Source of the DNA: Sphyrna mokarran
Lineage: Eukaryota
Direction: 5' to 3'
DNA length: 64,000 nt
Assembly: GCA_024679065.1 (NCBI GenBank)
Contig: JAGIQG010000008.1
Location: 97,278,001-97,342,000 of the forward strand
The position numbers and the translations under genes were made by a program. Positions 1 to 63,294 of the stretch are shown one piece after another. Under the pieces are notes generated by a model, which made no database searches, was not told where the DNA came from, and saw only the letters and a program-made list of their open reading frames with translations. Each line of letters starts with the position of its first letter. Within the stretch, counting starts at the first letter, position 1.

Positions 1-1247
1 CATCTTGGAATTTGGTGGAAGGCATGTCGCTGTATAGATGTGAAAAAGATAGTGCTGCAGAATACTGCTCTGCCTCATGGCCCCGCAGTCGCTCACAATT
101 CCAATTCCATTAAGGCAGCAATTTTTCAATTTACTGTCATTTTTTTCTATTATCTGTTTATCATAGATATTTTTCTATTCAGATTTCCCTTTTTTTTAAG
201 CCAGCTTCATGAAGCTTTTGCTTTCCTTGCAAGTGGTGAGGTTCCGCTTTCTGTCTTCACTGTTCCATAAGATGTGTTAGCCTTGTGCTTTTTTTTTTGA
301 AGGCTTGCTTTCAGTATTCGTTGGTTTCTTTCATTTCATCAGGTCTTTATTATTGCATTGATATTTGTGAGAACTTGCTTTGTACATAATGATCTTGGAC
401 ATGTCAGAGTCATTTAAGTTCAGCCTACCATCCATAAGGTGTTGAAAAACTGCAAAGAATGTTAAAAGTGTGCTGACCTTTCTGGGAAACTGCAGCTAAT
501 ATCCATGCATCCATTGTGCAACCCAGAAGGAGAGAATTGTGGGCATGTGCAACATAAACCCACATATCATCAGTCATCCAACAACAGAGGTCACCAGCTT
601 CGACCTCCAACAAGACAGTGGATGGCACTCAATATTGTGTGTGCACAATGAGGGGCAACCTGGGGTGCAATTGTGACCATCAGTTCCTGTCAATGGATCC
701 CATCGCAACAGTTCTTCCACTAATATCTATTACAGGAGGCATCCCATTTCTCTTGGCAGTGGAATACATTGCAACAACCTTTCCACTGATACCTGTTGCA
801 GGAGGCATCTCATTTCTCCACTCAGAAGCCACTGAATAGACAGTAAAACCAAACATCTCATTATAAGCTGTCCTTGTCATACAACAATAATAATAGTGAA
901 AAAAATGGAAAATTGTTGTGATAAGAAAGCTCAGTGAGATGGAACTAATGCCCTTACATAGAGTTGATTCTATACCTTAACTTAGAATGGTTAATGTTGA
1001 TGGAACACAGTGGAAAATGGTATTGCGAAATCTATTCCCTTCATCGTTAAGAATCCAAACTTGAAATAATAATCACATCTCTTCTTTTCACAGCTGCTAG
1101 TGGATCTGCTGTTTATTTCTAGTGTTTTCTATTTTCAATTCCAATATCCCATCTCTTTTACGTTATGTTGTAATTTATTCTATCAACATCACTAAAAACA
1201 TACCATCAAGTCTTTATTGCATTGATGTTTGTGAGAACTTGCTGTAC

Positions 1248-1332
1248 AGGAAGACACAAGAGTGTTGAAAGCTCGCAATTTTACTATCAAATAAATCGGT
1301 TGGATTAAAAATTGGTGTTGCTAAATTCTTAC
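1248..1332 (+). mobile_element. 85-bp Penelope pLTR fragment inserted in a Deu-type SINE
   Basis: AGGAAGACACAAGAGTGTTGAAAGCTCGC..GCTAAATTCTTAC; removing it restores the host sequence cttgctgtac|acaaattg. Confidence 0.85.
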
Positions 1333-1702
1333 ACAAATTGATTGCCATATTTCCTAATTACAGTAATCAGTTGGAAAACATTTTGATGGTTTAAAAAAAA
1401 ATTCCTTTCCCATTCTGAATAATAATCAATCTCCTTCTGCACCGCCAGCCTCAAACTGTCTCTGAGTTAGAAAATCTAAGATCCAGTCGCAGAGGGAGGA
1501 GCTGAGCCCTAGGCCACAGAATTTGGCGATGAGTTTTGTAGGAATAATGATGTTCAAGATTGAGCTGTAGTCAGTAAATAGGAGTCTGACATAAGAGTCC
1601 TTGTTACCAGGTAGATGAGGGTTGAGTGTAGGGCTGAGGAGGTGGTATCTGCTGTGGACCTATTGCAGCGATGGACGAACTTCAGTGGATCCAGTCAAAT
1701 GC

Positions 1703-1974
1703 GTGGCACAGTGACACATTAGTTAGCACTACTGCGCCTCAGCATCAGGGACCCGGTTTTGATTCCTGGCTTGGGTCACAGTCTGTATGGAGTTTGCACA
1801 TTCTTGTCGTGGCTGCATGGGTTTTCTCAGGATGCTCCAGTTCCTCCCATAGTCCAAACACGTGCTAGTTAAGTGCAGTGACCCGAACAGGCACCGAAGT
1901 GTTGCAACTAGGGTAGTTTCACAGTACCTTCATTGCAGTGTTAATGTAAGCCTTATTTGTGACTAATAAATAAA
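1703..1974 (+). mobile_element. HE1-type tRNA/V-SINE, Rex1-like tail variant
   Basis: A/B-box head, V-domain, tail ..TTTCACAGTA..TGTGACTAATAAATAAA. Confidence 0.88.
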
Positions 1975-2016
1975 TGTTAGTTTATAACTATAACTATATT
2001 ATAGTATATTTATACT

Positions 2017-2222
2017 AAAAACATGCTCTTAGGGTGATTGGTGTTAACAAATTGTCCCTAAATTAGGCATCCTCAATCTGGTTATGGTTCCTTTATTGTG
2101 GAGTCCAATAGGCGTAGACAAAGATCATAAGTAGAAGAGGGTACTCTCAATGTTAAAATGGTGGCGCGGGCTCATTAAGCCGAAGGGCCTGTTTCCTGTG
2201 CTGTGTTGTTCTTTGTTCTTTG
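2017..2222 (+). mobile_element. Family X 5'-truncated, diverged copy
   Basis: TGCTCTTAGG..GTGGCGCGGGCTC..GGGCCTGTTTCC..(TTCTTTG)2. Confidence 0.7.
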
Positions 2223-2801
2223 TTAACTTTAACTTTCTGCAAGGCTGGAATTGATCCGTACCTTTTCAACACATGCCCATATACACTGTTTGACATTTTA
2301 TACAAATTTACTATTTCCTATTCCAATATCTGCTTGGTTTGGTTGAAAGTGAATGTTGGAGATTCAGTGCAGTAGTGAGTACTCACTACTGTCGCATCTT
2401 CTTTTGAATGGATTGTTTAAGTGAGGCTTCATTCTTCTTAAGATGGATGTTAAAGAGACTGTTCTATTTCAAAATAGAAAAGTAGTATTCTGGCTGTTTT
2501 CTTTTTTTATTTATTCGTGGGACAGGAGCAATGCTGACTGGCCAGCATTTATTGCCTGTCCCTAATTACCCAAGGGCAGTTGAAAGTCAACCACATTGCT
2601 GTGGCTCTGGAGTCACATGTAGGCCAGTTTAGGTAAGGATGGCAGATTTCCTTCCCTAAAGGATGTTAGTAAACCAAATGGGTTTTACCATTCTTCGACC
2701 AATATTCTATATTGCCAGTAGTGGAGATATGTATATAATTTACATGTATATGTAAATTTATGTGTACCTGTGCTAATGATCTATTGATTTATGTTTTGCA
2801 G

Positions 2802-3113
2802 CTTTTCCTACTCTAAGTGCGATCATCTGTGAGCCAAGGAACCCTGTGATTGGAGAACAATTGACTTTGACCTGCAAAGTGCATTCATTTTACCCTAAAG
2901 ATATTAGTGTTCGATGGTTGAAAAATGAAGATGTTATTACGGATACAAAAACATCTGAAATAGTTAAAAATCCTGAAAATGTGTTATATGAACTTACCAG
3001 TTCATGCACATTTACTGCAACATTATCAGACCTAAGCAGTAAATATAGATGCCAGGTTCATCATGAGAGTCTAATGTATCCAAGGTTTGCGGAATATATT
3101 CCTGGAAGTTTAG
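2802..3113 (+). CDS. Ig C1-set domain exon A of a tandem multi-Ig-domain gene (5' exons lie outside the window or were not recognised)
   Basis: tttgcag acceptor at 2801 and G|gtatgt donor at 3114; 312 nt, phase 1-1; translates FPTLSAIICEP..LTLTCKVHSFYPKDISVRWLKNE..YRCQVHHESL, with the C1-set motifs L-x-C, FYP, W and Y-x-C-x-V-x-H. Confidence 0.93.
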
Positions 3114-4391
3114 GTATGTTTATTCTTAGTTTAAAAATATAAAAATGAGGATGTCTTATTTATAATCAAATTATCTTGCATTCTAATTTCACAAAATGGA
3201 TTTAGTAAAATTAGTGATGTTGTTCCTCACCTTTTACTTTTCATGCTTGAATGTAGTTGTCAGCTGTTTCTGTTGAGCAAACAGTACTACTGGAATTTAA
3301 AAGTGTTCTAATGGTACAGAATGGTTAAGTGCACCTCATGGTACCCCAAATAGGTTTGTAAGAGAATTTCACTACTACAAGTAATTATTCAGGGCAGATT
3401 TCAGCTGAGACACAGGTTATGCTGGTAGCTATCTTACTTTGGCTGTGGTAAAATCAGCTTACTGTCATCAAAATGAAATTCAGTTTTGAAGTTATCGGTG
3501 CGTTGATGAGAATTTTTTTATTCCTGGAGCGTTTATATACTTAAAACATATATGCTATACTTAAAATAATCCAGGTGACAAGGAGAGAAAAGGCACAAAA
3601 CCAGGTGCGAGAAATTGGGTTACATTCTTACTAGGCATATTAAAAGTAGATCTGGTATTGCTGAAATGGTATTGTTCGTTAAAATGTCTTATTTCTCAAA
3701 AACATGATTAGTGTTCAGGAAATTATGCTTGCCAGACATTAAGGCCCTGATGTACACCCACCCAAGGCTCGTAAGATCGCGTCCAAGGCCAACTGAGAAT
3801 GCCATTCTATGAGCCTCGCCCGCCTTGATTTCGAGGCGGATGTACCTGTAAAATTAGGACACAAGCCCTTGATTTTGTAAATTTTACTGCAGAAACAAAT
3901 ATTTTTCTACTGTGGAATGACAACTGAGCAGTACGATTGTTATATTGTCTTTTTTCCCAGCGTTTTAAATTATATATAACCCAATTACTCTGTTGCAGGT
4001 TCAGGTAATGTGCCAAAATCCTAATGATAATCTTACGAACATTCAGTCTATTCCCAGTTGAAGCTACAATTTTCCTGATCTGCATGATGTTCTAGTGGTA
4101 AAATATAGTTAATTTTTGGAAAGAAAAGCTGAATAACTCTTTCTGTGGAGTTTTGCAATGATAAACTAACCTGGAGAATAATATTAATTTAAAATTTTAA
4201 AACTCATTTGCATATGTGGGGCTATCTATATGTAGCACTGAATGTTAAGATCCTACTTGTTTGCTGCTTTCCAGTTAAAAGCCTTGAATAAATTCAACAT
4301 AGCTTGTTACACAATTTTTGGTATTTATGTTTGCAACAAATATTGGAACATTGTACTTCAGTTTTTCTTAATGTATTTCTTTTTATTTCAG

Positions 4392-4718
4392 TATCTTTTC
4401 CCAAAGTCTCTGAAATTACCTGCAATCCTACTATCCCTGAACTAGGGAGAGAATTGATTTTAACCTGTAAGATAAGTGAATTTTATCCAGAGGATATTCA
4501 AGTTGAATGGTTCAGAAATGAAGTGAGAATAAATGACGATGTAAAACACAGAGTAGTTACGGAAACATCACAGTGTGAAAATGGTCTGTACAACAAAATC
4601 TCCACAGTAACCATGCCTCCAACTTCTGATGATCATCAAGCTGAATATAGAATTGAAGTCTGTCATTCCAAATCTTCAACCAAACCTTTTAAGCAATGTT
4701 ACCAGCTATTTCTTAAAG
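4392..4718 (+). CDS. Ig C1-set domain exon B
   Basis: tttcag acceptor at 4391 and G|gtgagt donor at 4719; 327 nt, phase 1-1; LILTCKISEFYPEDIQVEWFRNE..EYRIEVCHSK. Confidence 0.93.
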
Positions 4719-6590
4719 GTGAGTTTTTTTTTTCCTCTTTGGTGAAGCAAGCCGTGATGGTAATTTTTCAAAGATCTTAATGAGGAAGCTATTGTGAATT
4801 GATGACAGGATTTGTCTCTTGCTCTGTGAGAGGTTAACAAAAATGTATTTGAAATACTAAAACATCACCTTAATTGTGCAATTATATCTTCCCTTCCATT
4901 TTATTTGTTCTGAATGAGTGGCTCAATTTGTCACTGTTTAATTAACATTATTGAAAAATATATGTACAAATATACAAAGTAAGAGCAGGAATAGGCCACT
5001 TGGCCCCTTGAGGCCGCTCCTAATTATACAAAATTTGCCAATGTTAGTATCATTTTCTGCTTCATCTTGGCCTGTGGAGCCTAAGCTAAATATGAATGAC
5101 AATGATAGGTCTGTTTACTATTGTTTAACTTTTGAATATTGTTACAATATTCTATGAAGTGACTCCTTTCTTTATCCCATTCCTGAGTTAGTGTCAGAAT
5201 TTGAATTTTAAAGGAAGCTGCTGTGGCCAATGCAATAATGTATTTAACTGTGTGTAGCTCAGTGGAAGAAATAAGCCAACCAGATTCTTCAAGTTTACAG
5301 AAGTTAGTTTTTTTTAATTGTTGAAGCTTAATCAGGTATAGGTGCAGAAAAAAATTAACAGAAATTTTAAAATGTGCCAATATGTTTAAATAGCCATGAT
5401 GCAAAAACAACATGCACCAAACATGCACAAAATGAGAAAAAATTCTAACTGCCAGATCTTAAAATAAAATTGGCCAAGTAGCAAGTCAGAAAAAAAAAAT
5501 TCATAAATCGTCCAGAAGGAGTTTTGTTTTAGAACGGAAGAATCCCATTCCGTGTTGGAGCAGTCACCTACAATCATGGCTGGTTGATGTAGAATTCTCC
5601 TTTGAGAACTCTTGGTTTGTAACAATAAAGTCTCAAATTATAAACAGCTCAGCTTTGATGAGAGAGGTTTCAGGAAAGAAATGGGCTAACTTTCTGGCTG
5701 TCTTACACCCAGCATATTTTTTTCACCCAAGAGCTGGAACATGTGACCCCTCTCTGAGAGCTGCATAGATTCATGGTCTCTACAAAAGCAGCTGTTATCC
5801 TCCACAAATTCAGCATAGTGGCTGCTGTAGCCAGTATCCTTTGCCTGAATTTTTCTTTCTGACGAATCATGTTATAGATTAATATTTTATATAACATATC
5901 TTCATAACAGTATGAAGAAAATCCTGACCATGTCCTCTGATGTTCTATGACACTATCATCACTGACTCCCCAACAACACCGTCAATACCCTGGAATACCA
6001 ATATCCTGAAACTCTATTGGATAAGCCACATAAATGTCTCAGCCACGAGAGATTTGACACTCTGTGGTGAGTGGCTCATCTGACTCACCAGAAACTTTCC
6101 ACTTCTACAAAGCTGTGATTGAATACTGTCTGTGTAGCTCTTTGGGCGCACTTCAGCAACAATGAAGAATCTTGCCATTAACTAATACAGGCTACTGAAT
6201 TGACACCGTCTAGTATAAATGTTCTCGTATTCCACTTGGGGTGTACTATGGGTGCAATGTGAACTCCGTACAGGAAACACTGCAACAAGTTGTTAAAACA
6301 TCTGAAGATGATCTTTGACCTTTAACACCTGGAAGGACATGATTTGGACGTCAATGCTGTTCCTTCTACACCTAGGCCAAATTCCTGAAATTCTATACCT
6401 AGCAATGCTACGGGAACCTGCATGCAGCAGTTTATCACCTCTTTTAAGGGTGAATGGAGTTGAGTAACAAATGGTAGCCTTGCCAGTATGACCCATCCAA
6501 AAAGTACTTAAAATAATATGTTGGCAGATTGGATGTGGCTTAGTTTGGTCTTTTGTATTAATTAAATATATTATTTCTCTCTGTTTATAG

Positions 6591-6905
6591 GCTCGCCAAA
6601 ATTTTCAAAGATCACGATGAAACCAGAGTGCCCTTTGTATGGGCAGCTTTTATCTGTGTCGACTTCAGTGTATGAAATTCCCCATAACAATGTTACAGTC
6701 GAATGGTATAAAGCATCTGAGCGCATCAAAGATGTGAAAAATTCAAATCTTGTGCGTAACGGTGAAAACTCATACAAAATAGACAGTCATCTGGAGTTTA
6801 CAGTGACTGCAGAAGACTTTGAAAGAGATTTATACTTTCTGTACAGAGACAATTCTAAAACTGATGTACCTGCATTCAAAAAACGTATTCAACTGCCACT
6901 TAAAG
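6591..6905 (+). CDS. Divergent Ig-like domain exon C (lacks both canonical Cys)
   Basis: tttatag acceptor at 6590 and G|gtaagt donor at 6906; 315 nt, phase 1-1, open frame; GSPKFSKITMKPECPLYGQLLSVS..VTVEWYK..YKIDSHLEFTVTAEDF..LPLK, same length and N-terminal P-x2-S-x-I pattern as exons A, B and D. Confidence 0.88.
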
Positions 6906-8008
6906 GTAAGTGTATGTCATGTGTTTATCTGTATGTATGTTTGAAAAAGCAGGTTTTGTTGATAATTCACATGAAAATAAATATATAATACAGCATTGAA
7001 GATGACCACCCTGTTTTGCTGAACAACAAAGGAATAGTTTTCATTATTCATCTCACATACAGTTGTGAATGAACCTTTTGTGGGTTTCTCAGGAGAGTTT
7101 TCCCAGCTTCATCTAAATTGTCCCAATTTAAATTAAGCTGATGCAATGTCTGTCTGCGTAGCTTTTTGGGTACACTTCAGCAACAATGAAGAATCTCACC
7201 ATTAACTAAAAACATGCTAATGGGAGAATTGCAGGGTAAATACATGGGGTTATGGCAATAGGGCCTGGGTGAGATTGTTGTCGGTGCAGGCTGGATGGGC
7301 TGAAAGGCCTCCTTCTGCACTTGTAGGGCTTCTATGATTCTATAATCGTAGATGGACTCTATTAGCAGGGAATCTGAGACATCTGTGAACAGGTCTAGTA
7401 TCCTGCAGATTTCAACAAGATTGAAGGATCTTCACTGATGTGTGCAGATATCAAAGCTAGAAGTAAAAACAAAAATTAAATATAATTCATATTAAAAGCA
7501 TACAAGAAACTTAAATAAACATATGGGGTCAATGGAAATATGAAAAATGTACAAAACAGAAATGCTGTATAAAATATCATTAAATTTCATATTTCTTCTG
7601 AAGCACTGAGACTCCACACTTGCCAAAATTAATTTATAGTGCAATCACTATAAGCTCCAGATGACTGTCTAAAGTTACGGCTAATGCTGATTGAGCAGGC
7701 CAACCTTTTCATTTATTTTTAAAATGAGAATAGTGGATAAATTAACTCAATGTTTAAGCCGTGATAGTGATTTCTGTGCAGATTCCATTGGCGAAGCCAA
7801 AGGTGGGACAGGATATCCCAGATAACAATTCTTTGTGCAAGTGAATTTTAATTATTTTATACCACTCTTTGAAACTTAAAATAAATGTTTATCTTGAATA
7901 GTTACTGAGAAAGCTTTTTAAATCCTTAAAACCATAAAAATAAATGTATTTTTAGGAGTCTGATTGCAGGTGATATTTTGCTATATTTTGTTTCTGCATA
8001 TTCCACAG

Positions 8009-8316
8009 CTGTGACTCCCAAAGTATCAGAAATCAAGTGTCATCCTGCTCATCCGAAAAATGGTGAAAGTGTAACTCTTACTTGCATGGTTGAACATTTT
8101 TGTCCAGTGGACATAGATATTCTTTGGAGCAAGGGATGGACGGAATACAAGGATAAGCAAAGTGTTGAAACACCCAGAATTGACAACATGGGACTTTATT
8201 CCACAGTTACGAAGTTGTCTATCACCGCAAATGAAGGTACAGCAGAATACAGCTGTGAAGTTCGGCACACGAAAACCAATGATATTATAGAGAAGATGTT
8301 CACTCTGTCTGTTTAG
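8009..8316 (+). CDS. Ig C1-set domain exon D, ending in the stop codon
   Basis: ccacag acceptor at 8008; VTLTCMVEHFCPVDIDILWSKG..YSCEVRH; TAG at 8314-8316 is immediately followed by gtatgt. Confidence 0.9.
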
Positions 8317-8417
8317 GTATGTTCTGCAATTTCTATGCAGCTTGATAATTTGCTTTTAATACTAGCCATTTTTGAACAATTAAACGTGATACATCCAACT
8401 TGAGAAGGTGGAGATCT

Positions 8418-8510
8418 CAAATAAAAACAGTAACTGGAAAAGCCCAGCAGGTCTGATAGTACCAGTGAAGAGTGAAACAGTTCACTTTTTCATTCAGTGT
8501 GACTCTTCAG
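8418..8510 (-). mobile_element. Older Penelope-type pLTR relic (related relics at about 1060-1140, 16270-16310, 24945-25000 and 39600-39685)
   Basis: AAATAAAAACAG..CTGGAAAA..CAGCAGGTCTG..AGAGTGAAACAG..GACTCTTCAG pattern, recalled as a common shark repeat, with a decayed CUGA..GAAA on the minus strand. Confidence 0.5.
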
Positions 8511-8548
8511 TGATGGAGAGCAAATAATGTTAGCTCATTGAAGCACTA

Positions 8549-9992
8549 CTAGAATCATAGAAGTTTGCAGCATGAAAACAGGCCCTTCAACCCAACTTGC
8601 CCATGCCAGCCTTTTTTTTTAACCCCCTAAGCTAATCCCTATTGCTCACATTTGGCCCATATCCCTCTGTACCCATTTTATCCATATAACTGTCTAAATG
8701 TTTTTTAAAAGACAAAATTGTACCTGCCTCTACTACTATCTCTGGCAGATACCTTTGTGTGAAAAGATTGCCCCTCTAGACACTTCTGTATCTCTTGGTC
8801 TCACCTTAAACCTATGCTCTCTGGTTTTAGATTCTCTTATCTTTGGGAAAAGATATTGACTATTAGGGTGATCTGTGCCCTTCATTATTTTATAACATCT
8901 ATATGATCATCCTCATATAGTGATGATATATTAACCTCAGCCTTCATCCTCATCCTCAGCCTTTTACGCTCCAGAGAAGAAGTTTCTATCCAGCCTCTCC
9001 TTTATAACTCAAACCATCAAGTCCCAGGAGCATCCTAGTAAATTTTTTCTACACTCTTTCTAGTTTAATAATATCCTTTCTATAATAGGGTGACCAGAAT
9101 TGTACACAGTATTCCAAGAATGACCTTACCAATATCTTGTACAACTTCAATAAGATGTCCCAACTCCTGTATTCAATGTTCTGACTAATGAAACCAAGCA
9201 TACTGAATACCTTCTTCACCACTCTGTCCACCTGTGACTCCACTTTCAAGGAACTGTGAACATTGTTCTGTAACTCTCCCCATGCCTCTACCATTAACTG
9301 ACTTCGTCTTGTCCTGGTTCAATATGTCAAAATGCATACTTCGCTTTTATCTAAATTAAACTCCATTTGCCATTCATTAGTCCATTGGCCCAATTGATCA
9401 AGATCCTGTTGCAATTGGAAATAATTTTTTTCACGGTCCACTATGCAACCAATCTTGGTATCATCTGCAAACTTACTAACCGTGCCTTGTATATTTTCAT
9501 CCAAATCATTAATATAAATGGCAAATAACAGTGGACTCAGCATTGATCCCTGAGGCACACTGCTGGTCACAGGCTGCCAATTTGAAAAACAACCCTCTAC
9601 AATCACCCTCTGGTTTCTGTCAAGAAATTAATTTTGTATTCATGTAGATACCTCCCCTGGATCCCATGAGATTTAACCTTACGCAACAACCTACCATGTG
9701 GTACCTTGTCAAAGGCCTTTCTAAAGTCCAACATCAACTGCACTGTCCTCATCTACCTTCTTGGATACCCCTTCAAAAAACTCAATCAAATTTGAGAGAC
9801 ATGATCTTCCACCACAAAGCCATGCTGACTGTCCCTAACCAATCCTTGCTTCTCTAAATGCCTGTAGATCCTATCCCACAAAATACCTTCCAACAATTTA
9901 CCCACCACAGATGTGAGGCTCACTGGCCTGTTGTTCCCAGGCTTTTCTCTGCATCCCTTTTTAAACAAAGGCGCAACATGGCACTAGTTCAA
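8549..9992 (-). mobile_element. CR1-clade LINE 3' fragment (RT + tail)
   Basis: minus-strand ORFs with PVSLTSVVGK, VPQGS..PLLF, KFADDTK and LEYCVQFWSP; candidate TSD AAGCACTA at 8541-8548 and 9993-10000. Confidence 0.93.
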
Positions 9993-24677: not shown

Positions 24678-25278
24678 ATGTGGACTCTGAGCTGCAAGTT
24701 ACCCATCACTTCTTTAAGTGAAGGTTGGAGGTGAGGGAAGAATACACTGGAACGTATGTTCAGCTGTATGAGGTTAACAATGGAGGATGCTCTAATGGAT
24801 TCAAATGAAGGAAAAACATTGACTTATTTTAGTAGATGTAGAGGTGATGTGGCAATTAAATTGGTTAGAGAGAGAAGACCACTGACAAAGCACTAGACGT
24901 ATTACCAACAGCTGGGATTGAGAGAAGGTTTGGAATCGGGGCTGCATGACCTGCTGAGTATGTCCAGGATTTTCAGGTTTTTTTAAACTTCGAATTTCCA
25001 ACGTAGATGTTTTGCCTTTACAGTAGCTTGTACAAAGGGCTAGCTCTGGGTGTTGTATATATTCCAGAATGGAAGTAGAGCTTTTGGCCCATCATTTCCA
25101 AACAAGTTCTGTGCTTGAACAATCCCCAATTGATTCCCCTATTCCCGCTTTCTCTTCTAAGTCATTTACCATCCCCTAATTGAAACATTTATCCAGTTTT
25201 CCCTTGCAAAATGCAATGTCTTTGCTTCAACCATTTGCCATGGCAAATCTTTGGGGCTCCAACAAGTTTTTGTCTGCA

Positions 25279-25975
25279 GATGTGATGCATTTTGGGAGCA
25301 AGAATGTAGGGGGGAGGTATATGATAAAGGCTAGACCTATTAAGAGTATAGAAATGCAGAGGGACCTGGGGGTGCAGGTGCACAAGTCTCTGAAGGTGGC
25401 AGAGCAGGTGCAAAAGGTTGTGAAGAAAGCATATGGTATGTTAGCCTTTATAGGAAGGGGTATAGAGTACAAGAGCTGGCCTTTAATGTTACAGTTGTAC
25501 AAAACGTTGGTTAGACCTCATTTGGAATACTACGTTCAGTTCTGGTCACCTTACTACCAGAAGGACGTGGAGACTGTGGAGGGAGTGCAGAGGAGATTTA
25601 CCAGGATGCTGCCTGGTATGGAAGGTCTGAGTTACGAGGAGAGGTTAAGCAAATTGAGGCTGTTTTCCTTAGAAATTCATGGACTTGGAGGAGATCTAAT
25701 AGAGGTGTACAAGATTATGAGGGGTATAGATAAACAGGTTAAGCTTTTTCCTAGGATGGATTCAAATAGCATGAGGGGTCATGGGCTTAGGGTGAGAGGG
25801 GGGTAAGGTATAATTTGGATGCTAGAGGGAGTTTTTTCACACAGAGGGTGGTGGGAGTATGGAACGCGCTGCCAGGTAAGGTGGTGGAGGCAGGCACTCT
25901 GGAGTTATTTAAGATGGACACATGAACAGAATGGGAATGGAAGAATATAGAAAACTGATTTAAAATAGGCATCAT
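25279..25975 (+). mobile_element. CR1-clade LINE 3' fragment
   Basis: RDLGVQVHKSLK..LYKTLVRPHLEY..FWSP..VQRRFTRMLPG. Confidence 0.92.
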
Positions 25976-34428: not shown

Positions 34429-34487
34429 TGGATCAGTTCAAATCAGAGTCTTTTCCTCACTCTGCGGCTCTGGATTAACAGCTTCAG

Positions 34488-34712
34488 ATGGAGACTGGAG
34501 ACTTGGCATTACAACCCAAAGTCGAGGAGGCAATGGGGCCCAATCAGCCTGAACCATCCAACAGCACGGTTGTGAACATGAAAACTCCGGGTCAACCCCA
34601 CCCCCGTTCACAGTCCCGACCTCCACACGACCACATCATCTGGTCCCTGTTCAATGCCTTCTACCTGAATGCCTGCTGTCTTGGATTCCTTGCACTTACC
34701 TTCTCAATCAGA
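34488..34712 (+). CDS. IFITM: Interferon-induced transmembrane (CD225/dispanin) protein, exon 1 (75 aa)
   Basis: PPHDHIIWSLFNAFYLNACCLGFLALTFSIR matches the IFITM CD225 motif (DHxxWSLFNxxxxNxCCLGFxAxxxSxK); phase-0 donor AGA|gtaagt at the conserved IFITM intron position. Family-level symbol only; paralog not assignable. Confidence 0.95.
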
Positions 34713-35029
34713 GTAAGTTGTCTTTCTGTTGTATTTCTGCCTGTAATAAATGGTCAATGGTTAAAATCCTGTGCTACAGGAAATGATATCTTATCAGGAT
34801 TTTCACAGTAACTACATTGCAGTATTAATGTATGCCTACTTGTGACATGAATGAGTAAAACAAAGGTTCCTTTTTTTTGCTCCTTTGCATCCTGTGATTT
34901 AAAGTGTCATTTAAAACTGGATCCTGGGTCAACGCAATCTGAGGCTAAAGCTATGGAATTGTCTAATGATATACGAATCTTTACAAGAAGTTGCAACACC
35001 ATGAACACATGGTGCTCTTGTTCTCAGGA

Positions 35030-35990
35030 CTGAGGTAGCACTGCATTTTCACAGGGACAGGACTATGTCAGTACTGCACTGTTGAGTGGACAATGATGAG
35101 GGAATACTGTACTGTCAGAGGGCAAGTATTGAAGGAGTTTTGCATTTCAGTAATGGAGGGACAGTAGTGAGGGAGTGATTCAGTGTCAGAGGGGAAGTAC
35201 TTCATTGTTGCAGGGCGAGAATAGAGGAAGTGCTGCATTGTTGGAGATGTGCTACTAAGGAAATGCTGCATTGTTGATTGGGCAATATTAAGGGAGCACC
35301 GTTTGTTGCAAGAACAGCACTGGGGGAATAATGCATTGTCAGAGAGGCAGTACTGAGGAAGTGCTGCATTTTCAGAGGGATTGTACAGATAGACTGAGGT
35401 ACAGTTATAGAAATTGTCCTGAGGGAGTACTGCATTTTTGGAGGGCCAGCAAGAGCAGCACTGTTGTAGGGGCAGTACTGATAAATTGCTATGTAGTGAG
35501 AGGAACAGTACTTAGCAAGTGTGGCACTGTTAAAGGACTGGACATTACACTGTTGGATGGTCAGTAGTGAAGGAGTGCTGCACTGTTGGAGAGTATGTAA
35601 TGAGGGAGCATTGCACTATTGGTGGGATCGATACTGAGGACATTGTATTGTTGGGGGACAGTCATGAGGGAATATCAAAGGATCTGTCTGTCAGGCAAGA
35701 GTTTAATTTGAACCCTGTCTGCACTCTTAGGTGTTGTAAAAGATCCATGGCACTATTTTGAAGAAGAGCAAGGGAGTTTTCTTCTGGACATTTATCCCTC
35801 AATCAACACTTGTCAAACAGATTAACTGCTCATTTTCAGGCTATTGTTTGAGGTTGCTTACTATTTGCAATTTGAGTACTATATTTCCTGCTTTGTAACA
35901 GTGACTATATTTTGAAACACCCTCAGTGGCTCTAAAGCACTTTGGGAGGTCCTGAGATGGTGCAAAGTGCTATTGGAAAGAATTTCATTT
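35030..35990 (+). mobile_element. Deu-domain (SacSINE1/AmnSINE-like) SINE preceded by a degenerate about 32-bp tandem array
   Basis: repeated CAGTACTGAGGGAGTGCTGCATTGT-like units at 35030-35660, then GTAAAAGATCCATGGCACTATTTTGAAGAAGAGCA..AAAGCACTTTGGGA; family from recalled similarity. Confidence 0.65.
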
Positions 35991-37615
35991 GCTCATCCTT
36001 AGAAGTTCCTTGAAGGTTCCCCAGTGCTGCATTTAATTTTTCTTTAATGATTCCACATGCTCCTGGCACTGATCACTCTTTGTGAAGAAACTTTCCCTAA
36101 GAAACTCTCTTCTGAATTCTTCATATTAACAGGAATCCCTGTCTCTTTCGCACGTTTTACTTTTCACTTCACTTCAGATCAGCCATGATCTTATTGAATG
36201 GCGGGGCAGGCTCAAAGGGCTAGGTGGCCTACTCCTGCTCCTATTTCTTATGTTCTTATGTACTTTGAAGTCATTTTGTGCATTTCCTCTTTCCTCGTTA
36301 ATCATTTATCCCTCTATCAGATAACCTTTCATTCCTTCACTTATCTTGTTGCAATGCTTTCTCATATCTCAGCTGCTTGCATTGTCAGCAATACTTGGAT
36401 ACCCTCTTTGGTCCACACCCTGCAATCTTGATCATCGACAAATTTATTTGCAAAACTTGCATCTCTACTTACCCACACTACCACTATCCCATTCTAACTC
36501 TTTTGCAAAGGTCCCATGAAAAAAAAACTATTCCCCCCAAGTCACTGATAACCTCAATTTCAACTGCCACCTGCCTGGTTTTCTCATTTACGAACTTCCC
36601 TTCTGGTTCTTCACCCACAGGTGCATTCAGCTCCAATGTTGAGTACCATTCACAATCCATCCATTGTGTCCCTGTAACAAACAGTTCCAATCTCCTGCAA
36701 CTAAATAAGCAACTACGCAACATTGTTATCATTAATCTTAAGCATTTTGCAATGTCCCAAGGCTGTTATGTGGTCCAAATAAATTCCCTACCTCCCACCC
36801 TTCCTCTCCCTCTTTCTTTCTCTCCCTTTTCCTCTCATCTTCTTTCTTTCTTCTTTTCTTCATTTCTCTCTTTCTTTTTCTCTCTTTCTTTCTCTCCTTT
36901 TCTCCCTTTCTCACTTATCTCTTTTTCTTTCTTTCCCTCTTTCTTTCTCTTCCTCTTTTTCCTTCTTCATTTCCCTCTTTCTTTCTTCCTTGCACTCTTT
37001 TTCACGGTCTCTCTGCGCTCTCTACTCATTGGATGTTTCCTGCAGTTGAGCTGCTTTCTGAACGCAAGCACTTGAAAATCATGAGCTGGGACAGTGGAAT
37101 TTTTCATTGCACATTCCAAGTGAGTACAAGGAAGGGACACAGCAAGACTGTTTCTGTCTCTATCGCTTGGTAATATCATCACTGGGCTAAAATCCATGAT
37201 ACCCTTCCTAACAGCACTACAAATTGTTCTACAACCACATGAACTGCAGCAGTTCAAGAAGGTAGCTTACCACTAGCTTCTCAATGACAATTAAGTGGGG
37301 TCAATACAGGCAGGTCTTTCAGTAACATATCCATCTCAAGAATAAATTTTAATTGGAAAAGAAAGATACAGATGGGAAATAATGGAGTGTTTAATCTTTT
37401 CCCAGGGTGAGTGTGTCGCTGTCAAGGCTGCACTGATTACATTCTGCAATGTTTTTCACAACCTCAAGAAGTCACAGAATATTTTACAGCCAGTCAAACA
37501 ATTTTGTAAATTGTAGTCACTGTTGTAATGTGAGGAACATGACAACCAATTTGTTTACCACAAGTTTCCAAAAATGGAAGGTGATAATGAACAGATCTAA
37601 GTGATATTTTGGATC

Positions 37616-37925
37616 ATAGAAAGCCTGCAATGCAGAAGGAGGCCATTTAGCTGACTGAGTATGCACTGACCATAATCCCACCCAATCCTATTTCTGTAAC
37701 CCCACATATTTACCTGAAAAATCCCCTGACGCTAGGGTCAATTTTCATGGCCAATCAACCTAACCTGCACATCTTTGGACTGGGGAAGGAAACCAGAGCA
37801 TGCAGAGGAAACCCACACAGACAATGTGCAAACTCCACACAGACAGTGACCCAAGGGTGCAAGAGAACCTAGGTCCCTGGTGCTGGGAGGTAGCGGCTCT
37901 AACCACTGTTGCCACCGTGCTGCCC
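37616..37925 (-). mobile_element. HE1-type SINE with CR1-like tail (IFITM intron)
   Basis: homologous to 27281-27597. Confidence 0.9.
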
Positions 37926-38409
37926 ACAATTTAGTTGAGGCATACATTTTTGACTGACTCTCTAAAAACTCCAGAGAGTTGGACTTTTCTCTGAACACTG
38001 ATATGAAATAGGAGAACCAAAGTATTAGGCTATTGTACAGAAAGAAAAGGAGATCATGCCCAGAAATTTCACATTCAGTTTATTCATCCCTTTTTCCAAA
38101 GTCCTTGAAAAACTCTCTGACCTGTGATGCCATTCAGTGTTTGCCATCAGTCTCTGTTGTACCCATCAATGTGACAACATCTCCAAGAGCAGGAATGACT
38201 TCTATATTGTGGCTTTACAGTAAGTAAAATGTTAGACTGCTTCGCACAGGTGTAATTATAATCAGCATAAAGAGGCTCCTTTCTGCTTGTTCCTCTATGT
38301 TCATTGGAACTTTCAAATGACAGATGATGTTTTAACAATTTCCAAGTTACTACGGTTGTTTTGCAAATCGTCTCTCACAGCACATAATCTCTCCATTTCT
38401 CCTTTCCAG

Positions 38410-38568
38410 GCTCGGGATTACAAAGTTGCTAACAACATGCGGAAAGCAAGAAAATTGGCTTCTACTGCCAGGGGGTTGAATATCGCTGCCACCTTGTTCT
38501 CCCTGATCCTGCTAGCAGCTGGTATAGCCTATTACCTGTACGTGACTGTGGCCCATTTCACCCCCTGA
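38410..38568 (+). CDS. IFITM: IFITM exon 2 (52 aa + stop)
   Basis: pyrimidine tract and ccag acceptor at 38409; ARDYKVANNMRKARKLASTARGLNI followed by a hydrophobic TM helix and TGA. Confidence 0.95.
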   Translation, partial: ARDYKVANNMRKARKLASTARGLNIAATLFSLILLAAGIAYYLYVTVAHFTP

Positions 38569-47160: not shown

Positions 47161-49920
47161 TGGATAGAGCAGGGACAGGAATGATTGTTGCAGGTTCCGG
47201 GGTTCAAATGCTTCAGTCGGAGAAGAGAAGGAGGTAGAAGGGGGGGAGGAGTGCCATTATTAGTCAAAGACTGTATCACAGTGACAGAAAGGAAGTTTGA
47301 TGAGGACTTGTCTGTTGAGGTAGTATGGGCTGAGATTAGAAACAGGAAAGGAGAGGTCACCCTGTTGGGAGTCTTTTATAGACCTCCTAAAAGTTCTAGA
47401 GAGGTAGAGGAAAGGATTGCCAAGTCAATTCTGGTCAGGAGTGAAAGTAATAGGGTAATTGTTATGGGGGACTTTAACTTTACTAATATTGATTGGAATA
47501 GCTATAGCTCTAGCTCGTTAGAGGGGTCAGTTTTTGTACAAAGTGTGCAGGAAGGTTTTTTGACTCAGTATGTAGATAGGCCAACTAGAGGTGAGGCTAC
47601 ATTGGATTTGGTGCTGGGCAATGAGCCAGACCAGATGTTAGGCTTGGAAGTTGGTGAACATTTTGGTGATAGTGACTACAATTCAGTTACGTTCACCTTA
47701 GTGATGGATAGGGATAGACATGAAGCTGGGGGCAGTAGTTATAGCTGGGGGAAGGGTAATTATGAGGCCATAAGGAGGGAATTAGGGTGCATAGGTTGGA
47801 CTAGGAAACTACAGGGAATGGGAACATCCGAAATGTGGAGCTTATTCAAGGAGCAGCTACTGCGAGTCCTTGATAAGTATATCCCTGACAGGCAAGGAGG
47901 AAATGGTCGAGTAAGGGAACCATGGTGTACTAAAAAAGTTAATTCACTGGTTAAAAGGAAAAAGGAGGCTTATGCCAGGATGAGGCTTGAAGGCTCAGTT
48001 AGTGCAATGGATAGCTATAGATTAGCCAGGAAGGAGCTAAAGAGTGAGTTGAGGAGAGCTAAAAGGGGACAGGAGAAGACTTTGGCTGATAAGATCAAGG
48101 AGAATCCTAAAGCTTTCTTTAGATATGTTAAGAATAGAAGATTGGTTAGGGCAAGATTAGGGCCAGTCAGAGACAGCAGGGGGAAGTTGTGCGTGGAGCC
48201 TGAAGAGATTGGAGAGGCACTGAACAAATATTTCTCTTCGGTATTCACGCAGGGAGATGTAAATGTAGTTGTGGAGAACACTGGGATACAGGATTGCAAA
48301 CTGGAAAGTATTGAAGTAGATAAGGAGGATGTGCTAGATATTCTTGAGGGTTTGAAGTTAGATAAGTTCCCTGGGCCGGATGGGATTTACCCTAGGATTC
48401 TCTGGGAGGTGAGAGAGGCGATTGCAGAGCCTCTGGCTCTGATCTTCAGGTCGTCGTTGGTTACGGGTTTAGTGCCGGAAGACTGGAGGATAGCGAATGT
48501 GGTCCCATTGTTCAAGAAGGGAAGAGAGACTTTCTGGGGAATTATAGGCCGGTAAGTCTTACTTCTGTTGTGGGCAAAGTATTGGAGAGAATTATTAGGG
48601 ATAGGATTTATAGTTATTTAGAGAGAAAAGAATTGATTGGGGATAGTCAGCATGGTTTTGTGAAGGGTAGGTCGTGCCTTACTAACCTTATTGAGTTTTT
48701 TGAAAAAGTGACCAAAGAGCTGGATGGGGGTAAGGCAGTTGATGTGGTATATATGGACTTTAGTAAGGCGTTCAATAAGGTGCCCATGGAAGGCTTCTGC
48801 AGAAAATGCAGATGTATGGGATTGAGGGTGATTTAGCTAACTGGATTAGGAATTGGCTAGCTGATAGAAGACAGAGGGTGGTGGTTGATGGAAATTATTC
48901 ATCATGGAGTTCGGTTACAAGTGGTGTACCTCAGGGATCTGTTTTGGGGCCCCTGCTGTTTGTAATTTGTATAAATGATCTGGATGAGGGTATTGAAGGA
49001 TGGATTAGTAAATTTGCGGATGACACCAAAGTCGGAGGAGTGGTAGATAGTGAAGGGGGGTGTTATAGTTTGCAGAGAGACTTGGACAAGTTGCAGAGCT
49101 GGGCCGAGAGGTGGGAAATGGAGTTTAATGTGGAAAAGTGTGAGGTAATTCACTTTGGCAGGAATAACAAATGTGTAGAGTATAGGGCTAATGGTAGGAC
49201 TCTTAATAGTGTTGATGAACAGAGGGATCTTGGTGTATGTGTGCATAGATCCCTGAAAGTTGGCAATCAAGTCGATAAGGTTGTTAAGAAGGCATACGGA
49301 GTCTTAGCTTTTATTGGTAGGGGGATTGAATTTCGGAGCCGCAACGTCATGTTGCAACTGTACAAAACTCTAGTGCGGCCGCACTTGGAGTATTGTGTGC
49401 AGTTCTGGTCCCCACATTATAAGAAAGATGTGGAGGCATTGGAGAGGGTACAGAGGAGGTTTACCATGATGTTGCCTGGTATGGAAGGCAGGTCTTATGA
49501 AGAGAGGCTGAGGGATTTGAGGTTGTTTTCGTTAGAAAGAAGGCGGCTAAGAGGAGACCTTATTGAAACATATAAGATGATTAGAGGTTTAGATAGGGTG
49601 GACAGTGATAGCCTTTTTCCTAGGATGGAGAAAGCTAGCACGAGGGGACATAGCTTTAAATTAAGGGGTGGTGGTTATAGGACGGATGTCAGAGGTAGGT
49701 TCTTTACCCAGAGGGTGGTAAGGGTATGGAATGCCCTGCCTGCGTCAGTTGTAGATGCGCCAAGTTTGGTGGCGTTTAAGAGGTTAGTAGATAAGTTTAT
49801 GGACGAAAAGGGAATGGTTTAGGTTAGAAGGTCATTGCTTTTTCCTAATTGGTCGGCACAACATCGAAGGCCGAAGGGCCTTTCTGCGCTGTAATGTTCT
49901 ATGTTCTATGTTCTATGTTC
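47161..49920 (+). mobile_element. CR1-clade (HER1-like) LINE, 5'-truncated ORF2 (APE endonuclease + RT), young but disabled
   Basis: GVFYRPP, MGDFN, LDLVL, GPDG, VYMDFSKAF, GVPQGSVLGP and KFADD motifs; TGA at 47182 and frameshifts near 48525 and 48785; (TTCTATG)n tail; TSD CACACTA at 47154-47160 and 49920-49926. Confidence 0.97.
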
Positions 49921-50750: not shown

Positions 50751-53118
50751 ATGAAGTGGCCCTATCTATCTGGCAGGCAAAAGCACAGAATATTGAAGGC
50801 AAGATAAGAGGTTAAAGCTCAGCAAAAAGGTAGTTTGTCATTTCACAATAGAAAGTTCAAAGTATTGAACAGAATTGCACATTCATCCTCATCCACGAGA
50901 AGTATGGATGAATTGATTGATGACTTCAACTCTGGAGATACCACATCGCCTGAAAAATTTGAACAAGGATTTCAAGGACAAGAAGCAGCGGACTCTGAAA
51001 TGGGAATGAGACTATATGATGCTGTTCTAGCTCATTCTCCTGCAGCTGAAGTGAGGAAAGAAACCTACCCTGAAGATATTGCCTCACAGCCAAAATCTGG
51101 TCCACTGTGCATGATTGAATAATTTGTAATAAATGGACTAGAGTACATAACTAATTTGGAAAATTTGAGAAAAAAAGTTTGATGTTGGAGACCAAAAGCA
51201 GCTTAGAAATCTTTGTGAGTCCATTTTCTGATAGTGAAAAGAAATGCCATGCCAGAATAGAGAAATTGGTTGATTTTTGTTTTCAGAAACCTCTAAGGCA
51301 GTCCACCATTACATTTTGCAAATTATTTCACAACCCTAGTAAAGGGAAACAAGCGTTCGTTGACATGTAGTATAACTGAAGAAATGTTGGCAGAGAACTT
51401 GCTGATCATGAAACTTCCAAAAGTCATATTAAGGCTATGTGTGTGTCTGTTCAAATATGTAAATCATCAGGAAAAATTGGTTTTCAATTATCAGCTCAGT
51501 ATGAAAACGAATGTTCTCTCTGGAGGAAAATGTTGAGATGTGTTGTTGCTGCAATCAAATTGTTGTCTTCCTTGGGATTTCTTTTAAGAAGACATAATGA
51601 GACTAATTTTTTAACATATTGAACATAAAATGTATTTGTCACTATAATGGCAGAGCAGCTCAGAAACCAGTTTACTAATGAAGTAAAAGATGCCAAACAC
51701 TATTCCACAATAGATGATTCAACTCCAGGTGTGTGCTATATGGGCCAATTAACTTTCATTTTAAAATCTATCACCAGTGATGATGAAGTTATAGAGTGAT
51801 TTCTCTGCTTTGTCCAGCACTTCTGAGTTTCTGGAGACAATGGCTTTGGAAATCACTGCAAATTTAGGTTTGGACATCAAAAATTGTTGTCGACAGCTTT
51901 GATAATGCAGCAAATATGGCAGGAAAGGAACCAGATCTACAAGCAAGTTTGAACAATGCAACAGCGCAGTCTTCATCCCATATTACAGCCAGTCCGGGAA
52001 TTTAATCTATATGCCGCAACTGAATAATGTGAGGCTACTGTTCATTTTTTTGACTTTGTTCAAGACTTCAATGTCTTTTATTTTTGTTTCCACGCATCAG
52101 TGGAATATGTTGCAATCACGCTTGGAACAGGCACATGGAAAACATTTGATGGATAAAGAATTTGTGACACCAGGTGGTCTGCTTTTGCAGATGCTGTTTT
52201 GGCTTTGAAACTGAAGTTTGTCCATATAACGGAATGTTTATCAGACAAAGTTATATCAGATTCAGAGAAACCATCTGTGAAAACTGGAGCAAATCCTTAG
52301 CAGAGAAGATTGAAAGGTACAACACTGCAGTTTTTACTGTTCTGCGGAATCATTTATTTCAAAGAATGAGCCCCATCAGCAAATCGCTACAAAATATTGG
52401 TATACCTTTACTGAATGCTTCACAATTGTTAGCCTCAGTGAGAAGTTCTGTCATATAAGTTCAAAAGTGAAAACAGAGACATTAGCTTTAACAAAGAATA
52501 CAGTTCCCTCTCATGATAAGAAACATACAAGATGCAGGAACTAGAGATAATTAAATTACTTTAAAAAGGGAAACAGAAGATCATCATTGAGACAGTTAAT
52601 GTTATTTGTTCCATAATAATGGTGCTATTGCAGAGTAGAAGTCAATCTCTGAAGAAGACTCTGAATTATTTTCTGTGCTTTTTGACAGAAGTTTGGATGA
52701 AAATGCTAAGCATCATTTCAATAAGAAATTAACTAAGTTCTTCTGGGAGGATAATGATATAAATCTTTTTGAAAATGCGGTGAAACAATTTATTCATTTC
52801 ACTGATAATGATGATCTCTGTGCTATGACAACACGAGCTGATTTGTACTGGGTTATACATGGTGGTTTTGAGACAATCTTTCCAAACGTGGAAACTATTG
52901 TGAAATTAGCTTTACCAACTTCTGTCACAAATGTTTCCTGTGCATGTTCTTTCCCTGCATTAAAAAGAGTTAAAAACTATCTATGAAATACAATGAGTCA
53001 GGGGCATTTAACAAGTTCAGGAATACTGATGATTGAAAATGCATCCTTACAAGATTTTACCTATGGTGATGTCATTGATGATTTTGTGAAAAAAAAGTGC
53101 AGAAGAAAACCTACCTAA
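50751..53118 (+). mobile_element. Decayed hAT transposase (ZMYM1/DUF4371-like with hATC dimerisation domain)
   Basis: MKWPYLSGRQK start; ..HYSTIDDSTP..GQLTF; FPNVETIVKLALPTSVTNVSCACSFPALKRVKNYL*NTMSQ..L..IEN..DVIDDFVKKKCRRK; many stops and frameshifts. Confidence 0.88.
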
Positions 53119-61408: not shown

Positions 61409-63294
61409 CTCAGTAAGAATTTAGCAACACCAATTTATAATCCAACCGATTTATTTGATAGTAAAAAAGCAAGCTTTCGACTCTGTGTCTTCCTCAGGCA
61501 AATGTAGTGTTCTGGTCTGCAATAGCACACATCAGCACAGACAGTCAGAGATTGCTGATTAGAATGCGAATCCTTACATCTAACCTGCTATTCAAGTGTT
61601 AAAGTGGCTAACAATGTGTGTGAAGGGAATCCTGAGCATTGGTTAGAGAATTGTGTATTTTCTCCAGACAGCACAGTAAGTGAGGTTTTTTGCTAACCCA
61701 GGCAAGTTACGGGGGTTACAGATAGTGTGTCATGAAGCCAAGATCCCTGTTAAGACCGTCCTCATGTGTGCGGAGCTTGGCTATCAGTCTCTGCTCAGCG
61801 ACTCTGCGCTGTCGTGTATCACGAAAGCCCCCTTGAAGAACATTTACCCGCAGGTCGGAGGCCGAATGCCCATGACTGCTGAAGTGTTCGCCCACAGGAA
61901 GGGAACTGTTTTGCCTGGTGATTGTTGAGCGATGCTCATTCATCCGCTGTCGTAGTGTCTGCATGGTCTCCCCAATATACCATGCTTCAGGACATCCTTT
62001 CTTGCAACGTATTAGGTAGACAACGTTGGCTGAGTTGCAAGTGTATGTACCGTGTACCTGGTACATACCAGAATGCTCTACTTCTCCAGCTTCCACCCTA
62101 GACACTTTAAAGAAGCCATTCCCTATGGACAAGCCCTCCGTATACACAGAATTTGCTCAGATGAGGAGGATCGTGATAGACACCTCCAGACGCTGAAGGA
62201 TGCCCTCGTGAGAACAGGATATGGCGCTCGACTCATCGATCGACAGTTCCGACGTGCCACAATGATAAACCGCACTGACCTCCTCAGAAGACGAACACGG
62301 GACACGGTGGACAGAGTACCCTTTGTTGTCCAGTACTTCCCCGGAGCGGAGAAGCTACGACATCTTCTCCGGAGTCTTCAACATATCATTGATGACGATG
62401 AACATCTCGCTAGGGCCATCCCCACCCCCCACTTCTTGCTTTCAGACAACCGCACAACCTCAAACAGATCATTGTTCGCAGCAAACTACCCAACCTTCAG
62501 GAGAACAGTGACCACAATACCACACAACCCTGCCACAGCAACCTCTGCAAGACATGCCGGATCATAGACATGGACGACATCATCAAACGTGAGGATACCA
62601 TTCACCAGGTACACGTTACATACACTTGCAACTCGGCCAACATTGTCTACCTAATACGTTTCAAGAAAGGATGTCCCGAAGCATGATATATTGGGGAGAC
62701 CATGCAGACACTACGACAGCGGATGAATGAGCATCGCTCAGCAATCACCAGGCAAAACAGTTCCCTTCCTGTGGGCGAACACTTCAGCAGTCATGGGCAT
62801 TCGGCCTCTGACCTGGGGGTAAATGTTCTTCAAGGGGGCTTTCGTGATGCACGACAGCGCAGAGTCGCTGAGCAGAGACTGATAGCCAAGCTCCGCACAC
62901 ATGAGGACGGTCTTAACAGGGATCTTGGCTTCATGACACACTATCTGTAACCCCCGTAACTTGCCTGGGTTAGCAAAAAACCTCACTTACTGTGCTGTCT
63001 GGAGAAAATACACAATTCTCCAACAATGCTCAGGATTCCCTTCACACACATTGTTTGCCACTTTAACACTTGAATAGCAGGTTAGATGTAAGGATTCGCA
63101 TTCTAATCAGCAATCTGACTGTCTGTGCTGATGTGTGCTATTGCAGACCAGAACACTGCATTTGCCTGAGGAAGACACAGAGTCGAAAGCTCGCTTTTTT
63201 ACTATCAAATAAATCGGTTGGATTATAAATTGGTGTTGCTAAATTCTTACTGAGTTCTTACCACCCCAATCCAACGCCGGCATCTGTACATCAT
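61409..63294 (+). mobile_element. Penelope-like retroelement (Neptune type), 5'-truncated, with an inverted 3' arm
   Basis: 62073-62950 encodes the RT C-terminus (FSSFHP..AIPYGQALRIHRICS), the PCHSNLCKTC linker and a GIY-YIG endonuclease (VYLI..YIGET..LRQRMNEH..GLN), with a frameshift near 62425 and TGA at 62684; 61409-62062 is the reverse complement of 62604-63254; duplication CACTTCTGGAGATCTC at 61396-61411 and 63295-63310. Confidence 0.95.
63160..63194 (+). ncRNA. Minimal type-I hammerhead-ribozyme motif in the Penelope pLTR (mirror copy at 61469-61503, minus strand)
   Basis: gc-CUGAGGA-A-GAC-acaga-GUC-GAAA-GCU-C-gc; stem I is only 2 bp in this subfamily. Confidence 0.65.

Follow-up and report, generated by a model that had tools for sequence, protein, structure and literature searches.

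C1-set domains are textbook components of the extracellular or luminal parts of immunoglobulin (Ig), T-cell receptor (TCR), major histocompatibility complex (MHC), tapasin, SIRP and B7 proteins. Human B7-H6 (NCR3LG1) is a surface signal for natural killer (NK) cells, where it acts as the ligand of NKp30. In the present work, we analysed a stretch of 64,000 nucleotides from Sphyrna mokarran (assembly GCA_024679065.1, contig JAGIQG010000008.1, our G000:C1437:97278001-97342000), hereafter the window, whose base 1 is contig position 97278001. An initial annotation of this window had recognised four C1-set exons (A to D) and had read them as an uncharacterised tandem C1 protein without a membrane anchor. 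These exons are the last four of the ten exons of a B7-H6-like gene, whose product is predicted to carry six C1-set domains behind a single transmembrane (TM) segment. The reading without an anchor is wrong, yet the predicted cytoplasmic C1-set array is as unusual.

Tandem Ig folds that operate under reducing conditions, in many cases lacking the canonical disulfide, are familiar from the cytosolic I-set arrays of the titin type. Those arrays belong to soluble muscle proteins, whereas the domains described here are of the C1 set and would lie on the cytosolic face of a membrane protein of the immune system. SIRP-alpha and SIRP-gamma also combine a V domain with C1 domains, which in SIRP are extracellular and followed by a short tail with immunoreceptor tyrosine-based inhibitory motifs (ITIMs). 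The SIRP layout (V-C1-C1 outside, TM, short motif-bearing tail) was rejected for the shark gene, where the TM segment follows the first C1 domain and six C1 domains stand behind it. Tapasin and TAPBPL possess one more domain N-terminal to V-C1, and their C-terminal tail is short; this candidate was also discarded, the V domain of the shark protein coming directly after the leader and its tail reaching about 680 aa.

Human B7-H6 resembles the shark gene in the order signal peptide (SP)-V-C1-TM, in being the best match of the ectodomain by sequence and fold, and in having a nucleobindin gene as neighbour. It differs in its tail: it is a 454-aa protein with a Gag-homologous tail containing ITIM, SH2 and SH3 motifs (PMC2715080), whereas the tail of about 680 aa in the shark is made of six C1-set domains and is not of the Gag type. 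Furthermore, a single gene is present in human, against at least seven in this shark cluster. The shark UrIg2 (VJ, nine C1 domains and TM) shares with our gene a non-rearranging V domain, a long C1 array and an elasmobranch host. There, however, the array is outside, the TM segment is last and the disulfides are canonical (PMC12227049), while in the present gene the TM segment comes after the first C1 domain and the array is behind it.

A hidden Markov model built from A to D was run across the 200 kb upstream of the window, and three further C1 exons of the same gene, together with three paralogous genes, were found. The resulting ten-exon model consists of a single open frame of 969 aa with AG/GT sites at every junction and the layout SP-V-C1-TM-(C1)x6. 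Its features, all on the + strand, are the following.

Contig 97253904-97253967, +, leader exon (gene model)
Contig 97265117-97265470, +, unsplit V exon (gene model; joint to C1 supported by the 3273-nt contig described below)
Contig 97267116-97267442, +, extracellular C1 exon (gene model; joints supported by the same contig)
Contig 97269556-97269672, +, TM exon of 117 nt, phase 1/1 (hydrophobic stretch, then basic residues)
Contig 97272676-97273098, +, post-TM C1 no.1 (gene model; joint from TM supported by the same contig)
Contig 97276681-97277043, +, post-TM C1 no.2 (gene model)
Window 1..2801, +, 3' part of the intron joining the upstream exons to exon A
Window 2802-3113, +, exon A, post-TM C1 no.3 (Pfam C1-set E 3.4e-17; spliced to B)
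Window 4392-4718, +, exon B, post-TM C1 no.4 (Pfam C1-set E 2.9e-13; spliced A>B>C)
Window 6591-6905, +, exon C, post-TM C1 no.5 (Pfam C1-set E 1.4e-5; AlphaFold2 model and fold search)
Window 8009-8316, +, exon D, post-TM C1 no.6 and last coding exon (Pfam C1-set E 3.2e-12; C>D joint; TAG ending at 8316)
Window 8317..8676, +, inferred 3' untranslated region (UTR); the GT directly after the stop is apparently unused

Exons A to D, described from the outset as four one-domain phase-1 C1-set exons, indeed each begin in phase 1, are bounded by AG/GT sites and score above the Pfam C1-set cut-off. The leader, V, C and TM parts are on separate phase-1 exons, in the single-pass type I layout of B7-H6. 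The TM exon, on which the claim of a missing anchor fails, is located about 8.3 kb before position 1 of the window and is spliced into a transcript-type contig. After residue 300, the hydropathy maximum is 1.13 as compared with 2.31 for the TM segment, so that no second hydrophobic segment is present. An in-frame TM exon downstream of D, which the initial annotation had also considered, did not appear either: no TM-like phase-1 exon was found between D and the IFITM gene that follows. The 969-aa protein is 86.8% identical to its Mustelus counterpart and 50.7% identical to that of Callorhinchus, and the C-terminal end at D is shared by 8/8 full-length orthologues. The stop of exon D directly abuts a donor-like GTATGT (both at window 8314-8322), at which paralogues with a seventh C1 exon splice; it may be the relic of a lost exon.

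The splicing evidence was provided by one contig of 3273 nt from one run (X1), the RNA label of which is a guess, none of the matches listed being on record as RNA. This contig joins V>C1>TM>C1 no.1 and A>B>C>D at GT..AG introns, shows 0 mismatches over the 7 pieces listed and reaches exon A at its base 1650; the gap between its two aligned stretches has exactly the length of exon no.2. The joints read from it were V>C1, C1>TM, TM>C1 no.1, A>B, B>C and C>D; neither leader>V nor either joint of no.2 is among them. None of the joints listed leaves position 8316 at the end of D, the bin 8005-8671 is covered and the length of the contig leaves about 360 nt after the stop, for which reasons 8317..8676 was taken as the 3' UTR. 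The gene is real and conserved and, on the evidence of this one contig, expressed.

The V+C1 ectodomain is closest to B7-H6 among solved proteins, by sequence and by fold. For the V domain, the top 3 of 11 PDB matches were human B7-H6; for the extracellular C1 domain, B7-H6 ranked 3rd to 5th of 397, after two multi-domain Ig-type chains. When the full-length orthologue P0001 was used, the best match was B7-H6 over residues 38-240 (E 1.4e-19). In the AlphaFold2 model of P0001 (mean predicted local distance difference test, pLDDT, 81.3; predicted template modelling score 0.43), the predicted ectodomain superimposed on B7-H6 3pv7 with a TM-score of 0.88 by target and a root-mean-square deviation (rmsd) of 2.3 A over 223 columns. 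The ESM Atlas returned generic C1/NCR3LG1/tapasin clusters only.

Seven V-C1-TM genes are present between 96.83 and 97.29 Mb, with 0, 1, 2, 7, 4, 6 and 6 detected post-TM C1 exons, and a phase 1/1 TM exon follows the first C1 exon in 7/7 of them. Besides the gene described above, the cluster comprises:

G000:C1437:96831327-97226466 (L033-L052, L006-L018), six further B7-H6-like paralogues with 0 to 7 detected post-TM C1 exons

One of these six is inverted, and its last exons are nearly identical to those of another, which suggests a recent duplication or conversion. Nucleobindin exons, in the same orientation as the cluster, were found about 138 kb ahead of it (2/148 open reading frames scanned; Pfam does not separate NUCB1 from NUCB2). 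On human 11p15.1, the order given in PMC3608171 is NUCB2, NCR3LG1, KCNJ11, ABCC8. Synteny with human NCR3LG1 appears to hold on the nucleobindin side only: against it, the nearest KCNJ-type (Kir-channel) gene detected along the contig lies at a distance of 10 Mb and an IFITM cluster occupies the other side. Taken as a whole, the comparisons indicate that the gene is B7-H6-like and likely a co-orthologue of NCR3LG1.

As for the four domains of the window, the cysteine pattern first described was recovered. A and D keep the Cys pair of the B and F strands, B lacks the F-strand Cys (YRIEVCH), and C lacks both canonical Cys and keeps the Trp. The idea that the disulfides are eroding was right. In the alignments, A has both Cys in 17/17 homologues and B has the canonical pair in 0/17, with the Trp in 17/17. 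The only N-glycosylation sequon within A to D is the NVT already noticed. An extra N-terminal Cys is indeed present in all four domains in this species; among 15 orthologues it is conserved in B (13/15) and D (12/15), and not in A (6/15) or C (0/15). Domain C was modelled by AlphaFold2 with a pLDDT of 92.3 as a C1 sandwich without the canonical Cys, and its fold search (VIA) gave Z values of 12.3-13.1 and rmsd values of 1.9-2.4 A against the C1 domains of MHC II, SIRP-gamma and B7-H6. A to D, the Cys-less C included, are predicted to adopt the seven-strand C1 sandwich with its C-strand Trp. In this gene the six tail domains keep a constant order from shark to chimaera, with 41-62% identity per domain.

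A family set was made of the 34 matches to the P0001 tail (30 family members and 4 Ig heavy chains) and of the 150 top representatives by profile. Scores were obtained for 167 of 180 proteins, the remainder being longer than 2600 aa or without a match. A V domain, at least one C1 domain, a single TM segment and then 1-14 C1-like domains were present in 121 of these 167 proteins. This layout was seen in sharks, rays, chimaera, Polypterus, Erpetoichthys, four teleosts, coelacanth, lungfish and caecilians, as well as in many frogs (both Xenopus species) and the lizard Pogona; a V-less isoform of the turtle Caretta is similar. Neither among the 30 representatives whose names were looked up nor among the 34 tail matches did a bird or mammal appear, which is not evidence of absence. 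Several relatives bear the automatic name NCR3LG1-like, others being called 'uncharacterized', 'hemicentin-like', 'SIRP-like' or 'butyrophilin-like'. P0103, P0162, P0165, P0125, P0127 and P0148 form a compact subfamily, often named SIRP-like, in which three C1 domains follow the TM segment; it appears to be conserved in bichir, teleosts, Xenopus, lizard and turtle.

A protein with a leader and one TM segment exposes its post-TM part to the cytosol by the standard type I rule. It is very probable that the present protein has this type I topology and that its six tail domains lie in the cytosol, where they would fold without need of a disulfide. The net charge was more positive after the TM segment than before it in 109/121 proteins, equal in 9 and lower in 3. 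Cys pairs were counted by alignment, which replaced a cruder regular-expression count, and 140/631 post-TM domains were set aside for gaps. The B/F pair was present in 130/133 pre-TM C1 domains as compared with 260/491 post-TM domains, 490/491 of which keep the Trp. At least one domain without the pair was found in the tail of 92/110 proteins and before the TM segment in 3/121 proteins. Finally, the motif [DE]xxxL[LIM], which we take to be a sorting signal for AP adaptors, occurred 73 times within 120 aa behind the TM segment for 22.4 expected, a 3-fold enrichment, and 100 times in the remaining tail for 100.4 expected. This dileucine-type motif stands near the TM segment in 67/121 proteins, mostly 55-95 residues behind it.

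In a quick tree, the tail domains clustered by position across shark, chimaera, caecilian, lungfish, coelacanth and frog, which suggests that the six-domain tail is older than the split between cartilaginous and bony fishes; its order is also kept to lungfish and caecilian. All post-TM domains came together, with weak support, both in tree 1 (83 rows, SH-aLRT 89), with five C1 exons of a V-C1 family nested among them, and in tree 2 (51 rows, support 52). A clade of the tail with its own extracellular C1 domain was not rejected (p-value of the approximately unbiased test, p-AU, 0.42), and for this reason neither duplication nor capture is favoured as the origin of the tail. The label 'SIRP-like' for the five nested exons was not confirmed. 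The V-C1 family itself forms clusters at G000:C993:54.7 and 62.4-63.1 Mb (L055-L061, L068, L074), and its C1 exons fall among the tail domains in one of the two trees.

With moderate confidence, we propose that exons A to D encode the last four of the six post-TM C1 domains of a B7-H6-like protein, and that these domains probably form a folded cytoplasmic tail, a binding scaffold which would control the surface display of a likely NK-cell ligand. By homology, the ectodomain would be a ligand of the NKp30 type, and the binding of NKp30 by the V domain appears fairly probable. The tail would be a rod of C1 domains which does without the disulfide and to which cytosolic partners bind, and these would set the amount of ligand which reaches the surface and clusters there. 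Most relatives possess, in a loop of the domain that opens the tail, an acidic dileucine motif that would recruit clathrin AP adaptors and could, in the many paralogues that carry it, lead to regulated internalisation; the present paralogue, devoid of the motif, might be held or displayed differently. The regulation of trafficking or clustering by the tail is the weakest part of the proposal; for it, arguments and doubts are nearly balanced, with the doubts slightly ahead. A homodimer prediction of tail domains no.2-A-B (P0001 residues 428-760) scored 0.01, which is no answer, and was used neither way.

The main rival to a trafficking role of the tail, although unlikely, is that the cytosolic C1 array serves as a pathogen sensor or decoy, which viral or bacterial proteins would bind or cleave and which would then release the ligand to the surface or signal. 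The variation in tail length, from 1 to 14 domains among relatives and from none detected to 7 within the cluster, is in its favour, as is the position of the cluster beside the large IFITM/CD225 cluster (97.31-97.73 Mb). The Gag-homologous tail reported for human B7-H6 (PMC2715080) could also hint at a tail shaped by viruses. However, the tail of this gene is stable, with six domains in constant order from shark to chimaera, lungfish and caecilian.

A reverse-signalling platform, in which the C1 domains would bind kinases, phosphatases or B30.2/TRIM-type proteins once the ligand is engaged from outside, is improbable. A long rod of domains would suit adaptor binding, and the human tail has ITIM, SH2-binding and SH3-binding motifs (PMC2715080), but the sole ITIM-like match in the shark tail, IWYKIV at 465, lies in a core C strand beside the Trp and is probably buried.

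We consider it very unlikely that the array is luminal or secreted, through skipping of the TM exon or a non-standard topology that would yield a soluble poly-C1 protein. The phase 1/1 TM exon could be skipped in frame, and at least three database proteins (P0046, P0063, P0087) have no TM segment between the first C1 domain and the tail; both Cys are kept in many tail domains. On the other hand, the TM exon is included in the one contig, where no skipping occurs among the joints listed (3 weaker joints stood outside them), and a TM segment is present in 121 proteins, with the positive-inside bias, the Cys loss and the dileucine enrichment all on the post-TM side. The TM-less records are possibly omissions in gene models. 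Of the secreted or cytosolic poly-C1 protein initially proposed, the cytosolic location stands as possible, while an anchorless, secreted or free protein does not: the exons encode the tail of a single-pass membrane protein whose SP, V, C1 and TM exons are upstream.

Nevertheless, several points speak against the cytosolic reading. The topology was deduced from hydropathy and sequence statistics, and the set of 121 proteins contains isoforms and consists of relatives, so that the counts are not independent. The dileucine motif is missing at that site in this gene and its orthologues. About half of the post-TM domains keep both Cys, as no.2 and A do in 17/17 aligned proteins, and one post-TM sequon is kept in 10/17. 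The sequon contrast (observed/expected 1.79 vs 1.12) is weak evidence of topology, because it overlaps the range of 0.72-1.59 obtained with five secreted or surface Ig heavy-chain controls. P0046 and P0063 pass from the first C1 domain straight to the tail. Finally, the splicing was read from a single contig of a single run with a guessed RNA label, and the leader, whose joint to V is outside the joints supported by this contig, has a modest hydropathy (1.13).

That the exons belong to an Ig heavy-chain constant region, a UrIg-type gene or a SIRP gene has practically no probability and is refuted by the exon order: although the best PDB matches of domain A are SIRP-alpha/gamma and IgE/IgA constant domains, an unsplit V exon is joined directly to C1 and TM, the TM segment precedes the array with none after it, and the post-TM domains never fell within Ig, TCR or MHC C1 groups in the two quick trees. 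The candidate heavy chains IgM, IgW and IgNAR, which have a split V(D)J, extracellular constant exons and a secretory tail or TM segment at the 3' end, were rejected on the same V-C1-TM splicing, with no TM-like phase-1 exon found between D and the IFITM gene and with orthologues that end at D. The initial annotation was right to see here none of the Ig, TCR, MHC, SIRP or tapasin chains, and the grouping with a known heavy-chain gene that it had allowed for was not seen in the two trees.

On a broader scale, the ancestral B7-H6 family of jawed vertebrates may have borne a cytosolic C1-set array, a location otherwise not known for this domain. Its six-domain tail would predate the shark/bony-fish split, have grown or shrunk to between 1 and 14 domains depending on the lineage and have been replaced toward humans by a retroviral Gag-derived tail; inside the cell, the array would be a switch, perhaps one that senses pathogens, and would license the display of an NK ligand. 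We put this scenario forward tentatively and regard it as rather doubtful as a whole. If true, up to 14 C1-set domains on the cytosolic side would alter the view of what this domain can do. With domains that keep the pair, have lost one Cys or have lost both, the tails also offer a natural series on C1 folding without a disulfide, of relevance to intrabody design. They frame a question on human B7-H6 as well, namely why it has a Gag-like tail and how its display at the surface is confined to stressed or tumour cells. With members in Xenopus and teleosts, the role of the tail can be tested in standard models. Frog B7H6 tails are reportedly discussed in Flajnik 2012 or Ohta and Flajnik 2015. No description of cytoplasmic C1 domains in B7-H6 was found in the literature covered, which did not include these two works and a 2018 review; the supplement of PMC3964593 contained no B7H6 match.

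The innate-immunity neighbour first noticed is a two-exon IFITM/CD225 gene (window 34479-38565, +). It is the first of a large CD225 cluster with more than 20 exon matches (contig 97.31-97.73 Mb), which follows immediately after the B7-H6-like cluster. Another gene of the V-C1-TM-C1 type, unlinked to these, was located at G000:C993:31338114-31349121 (L069, L070), with one C1 domain detected behind its TM segment. At window 50808-51119 (+), an open frame of 104 aa without a Pfam match resembles a coding exon and is possibly the N-terminus of a neighbouring gene. Retrotransposon-like reverse-transcriptase frames, presumably LINE-type and Penelope-like and broken into several open reading frames, were observed in the window at 47185-49819 (+), 9052-9627, 25180-25803 and 61719-62564.

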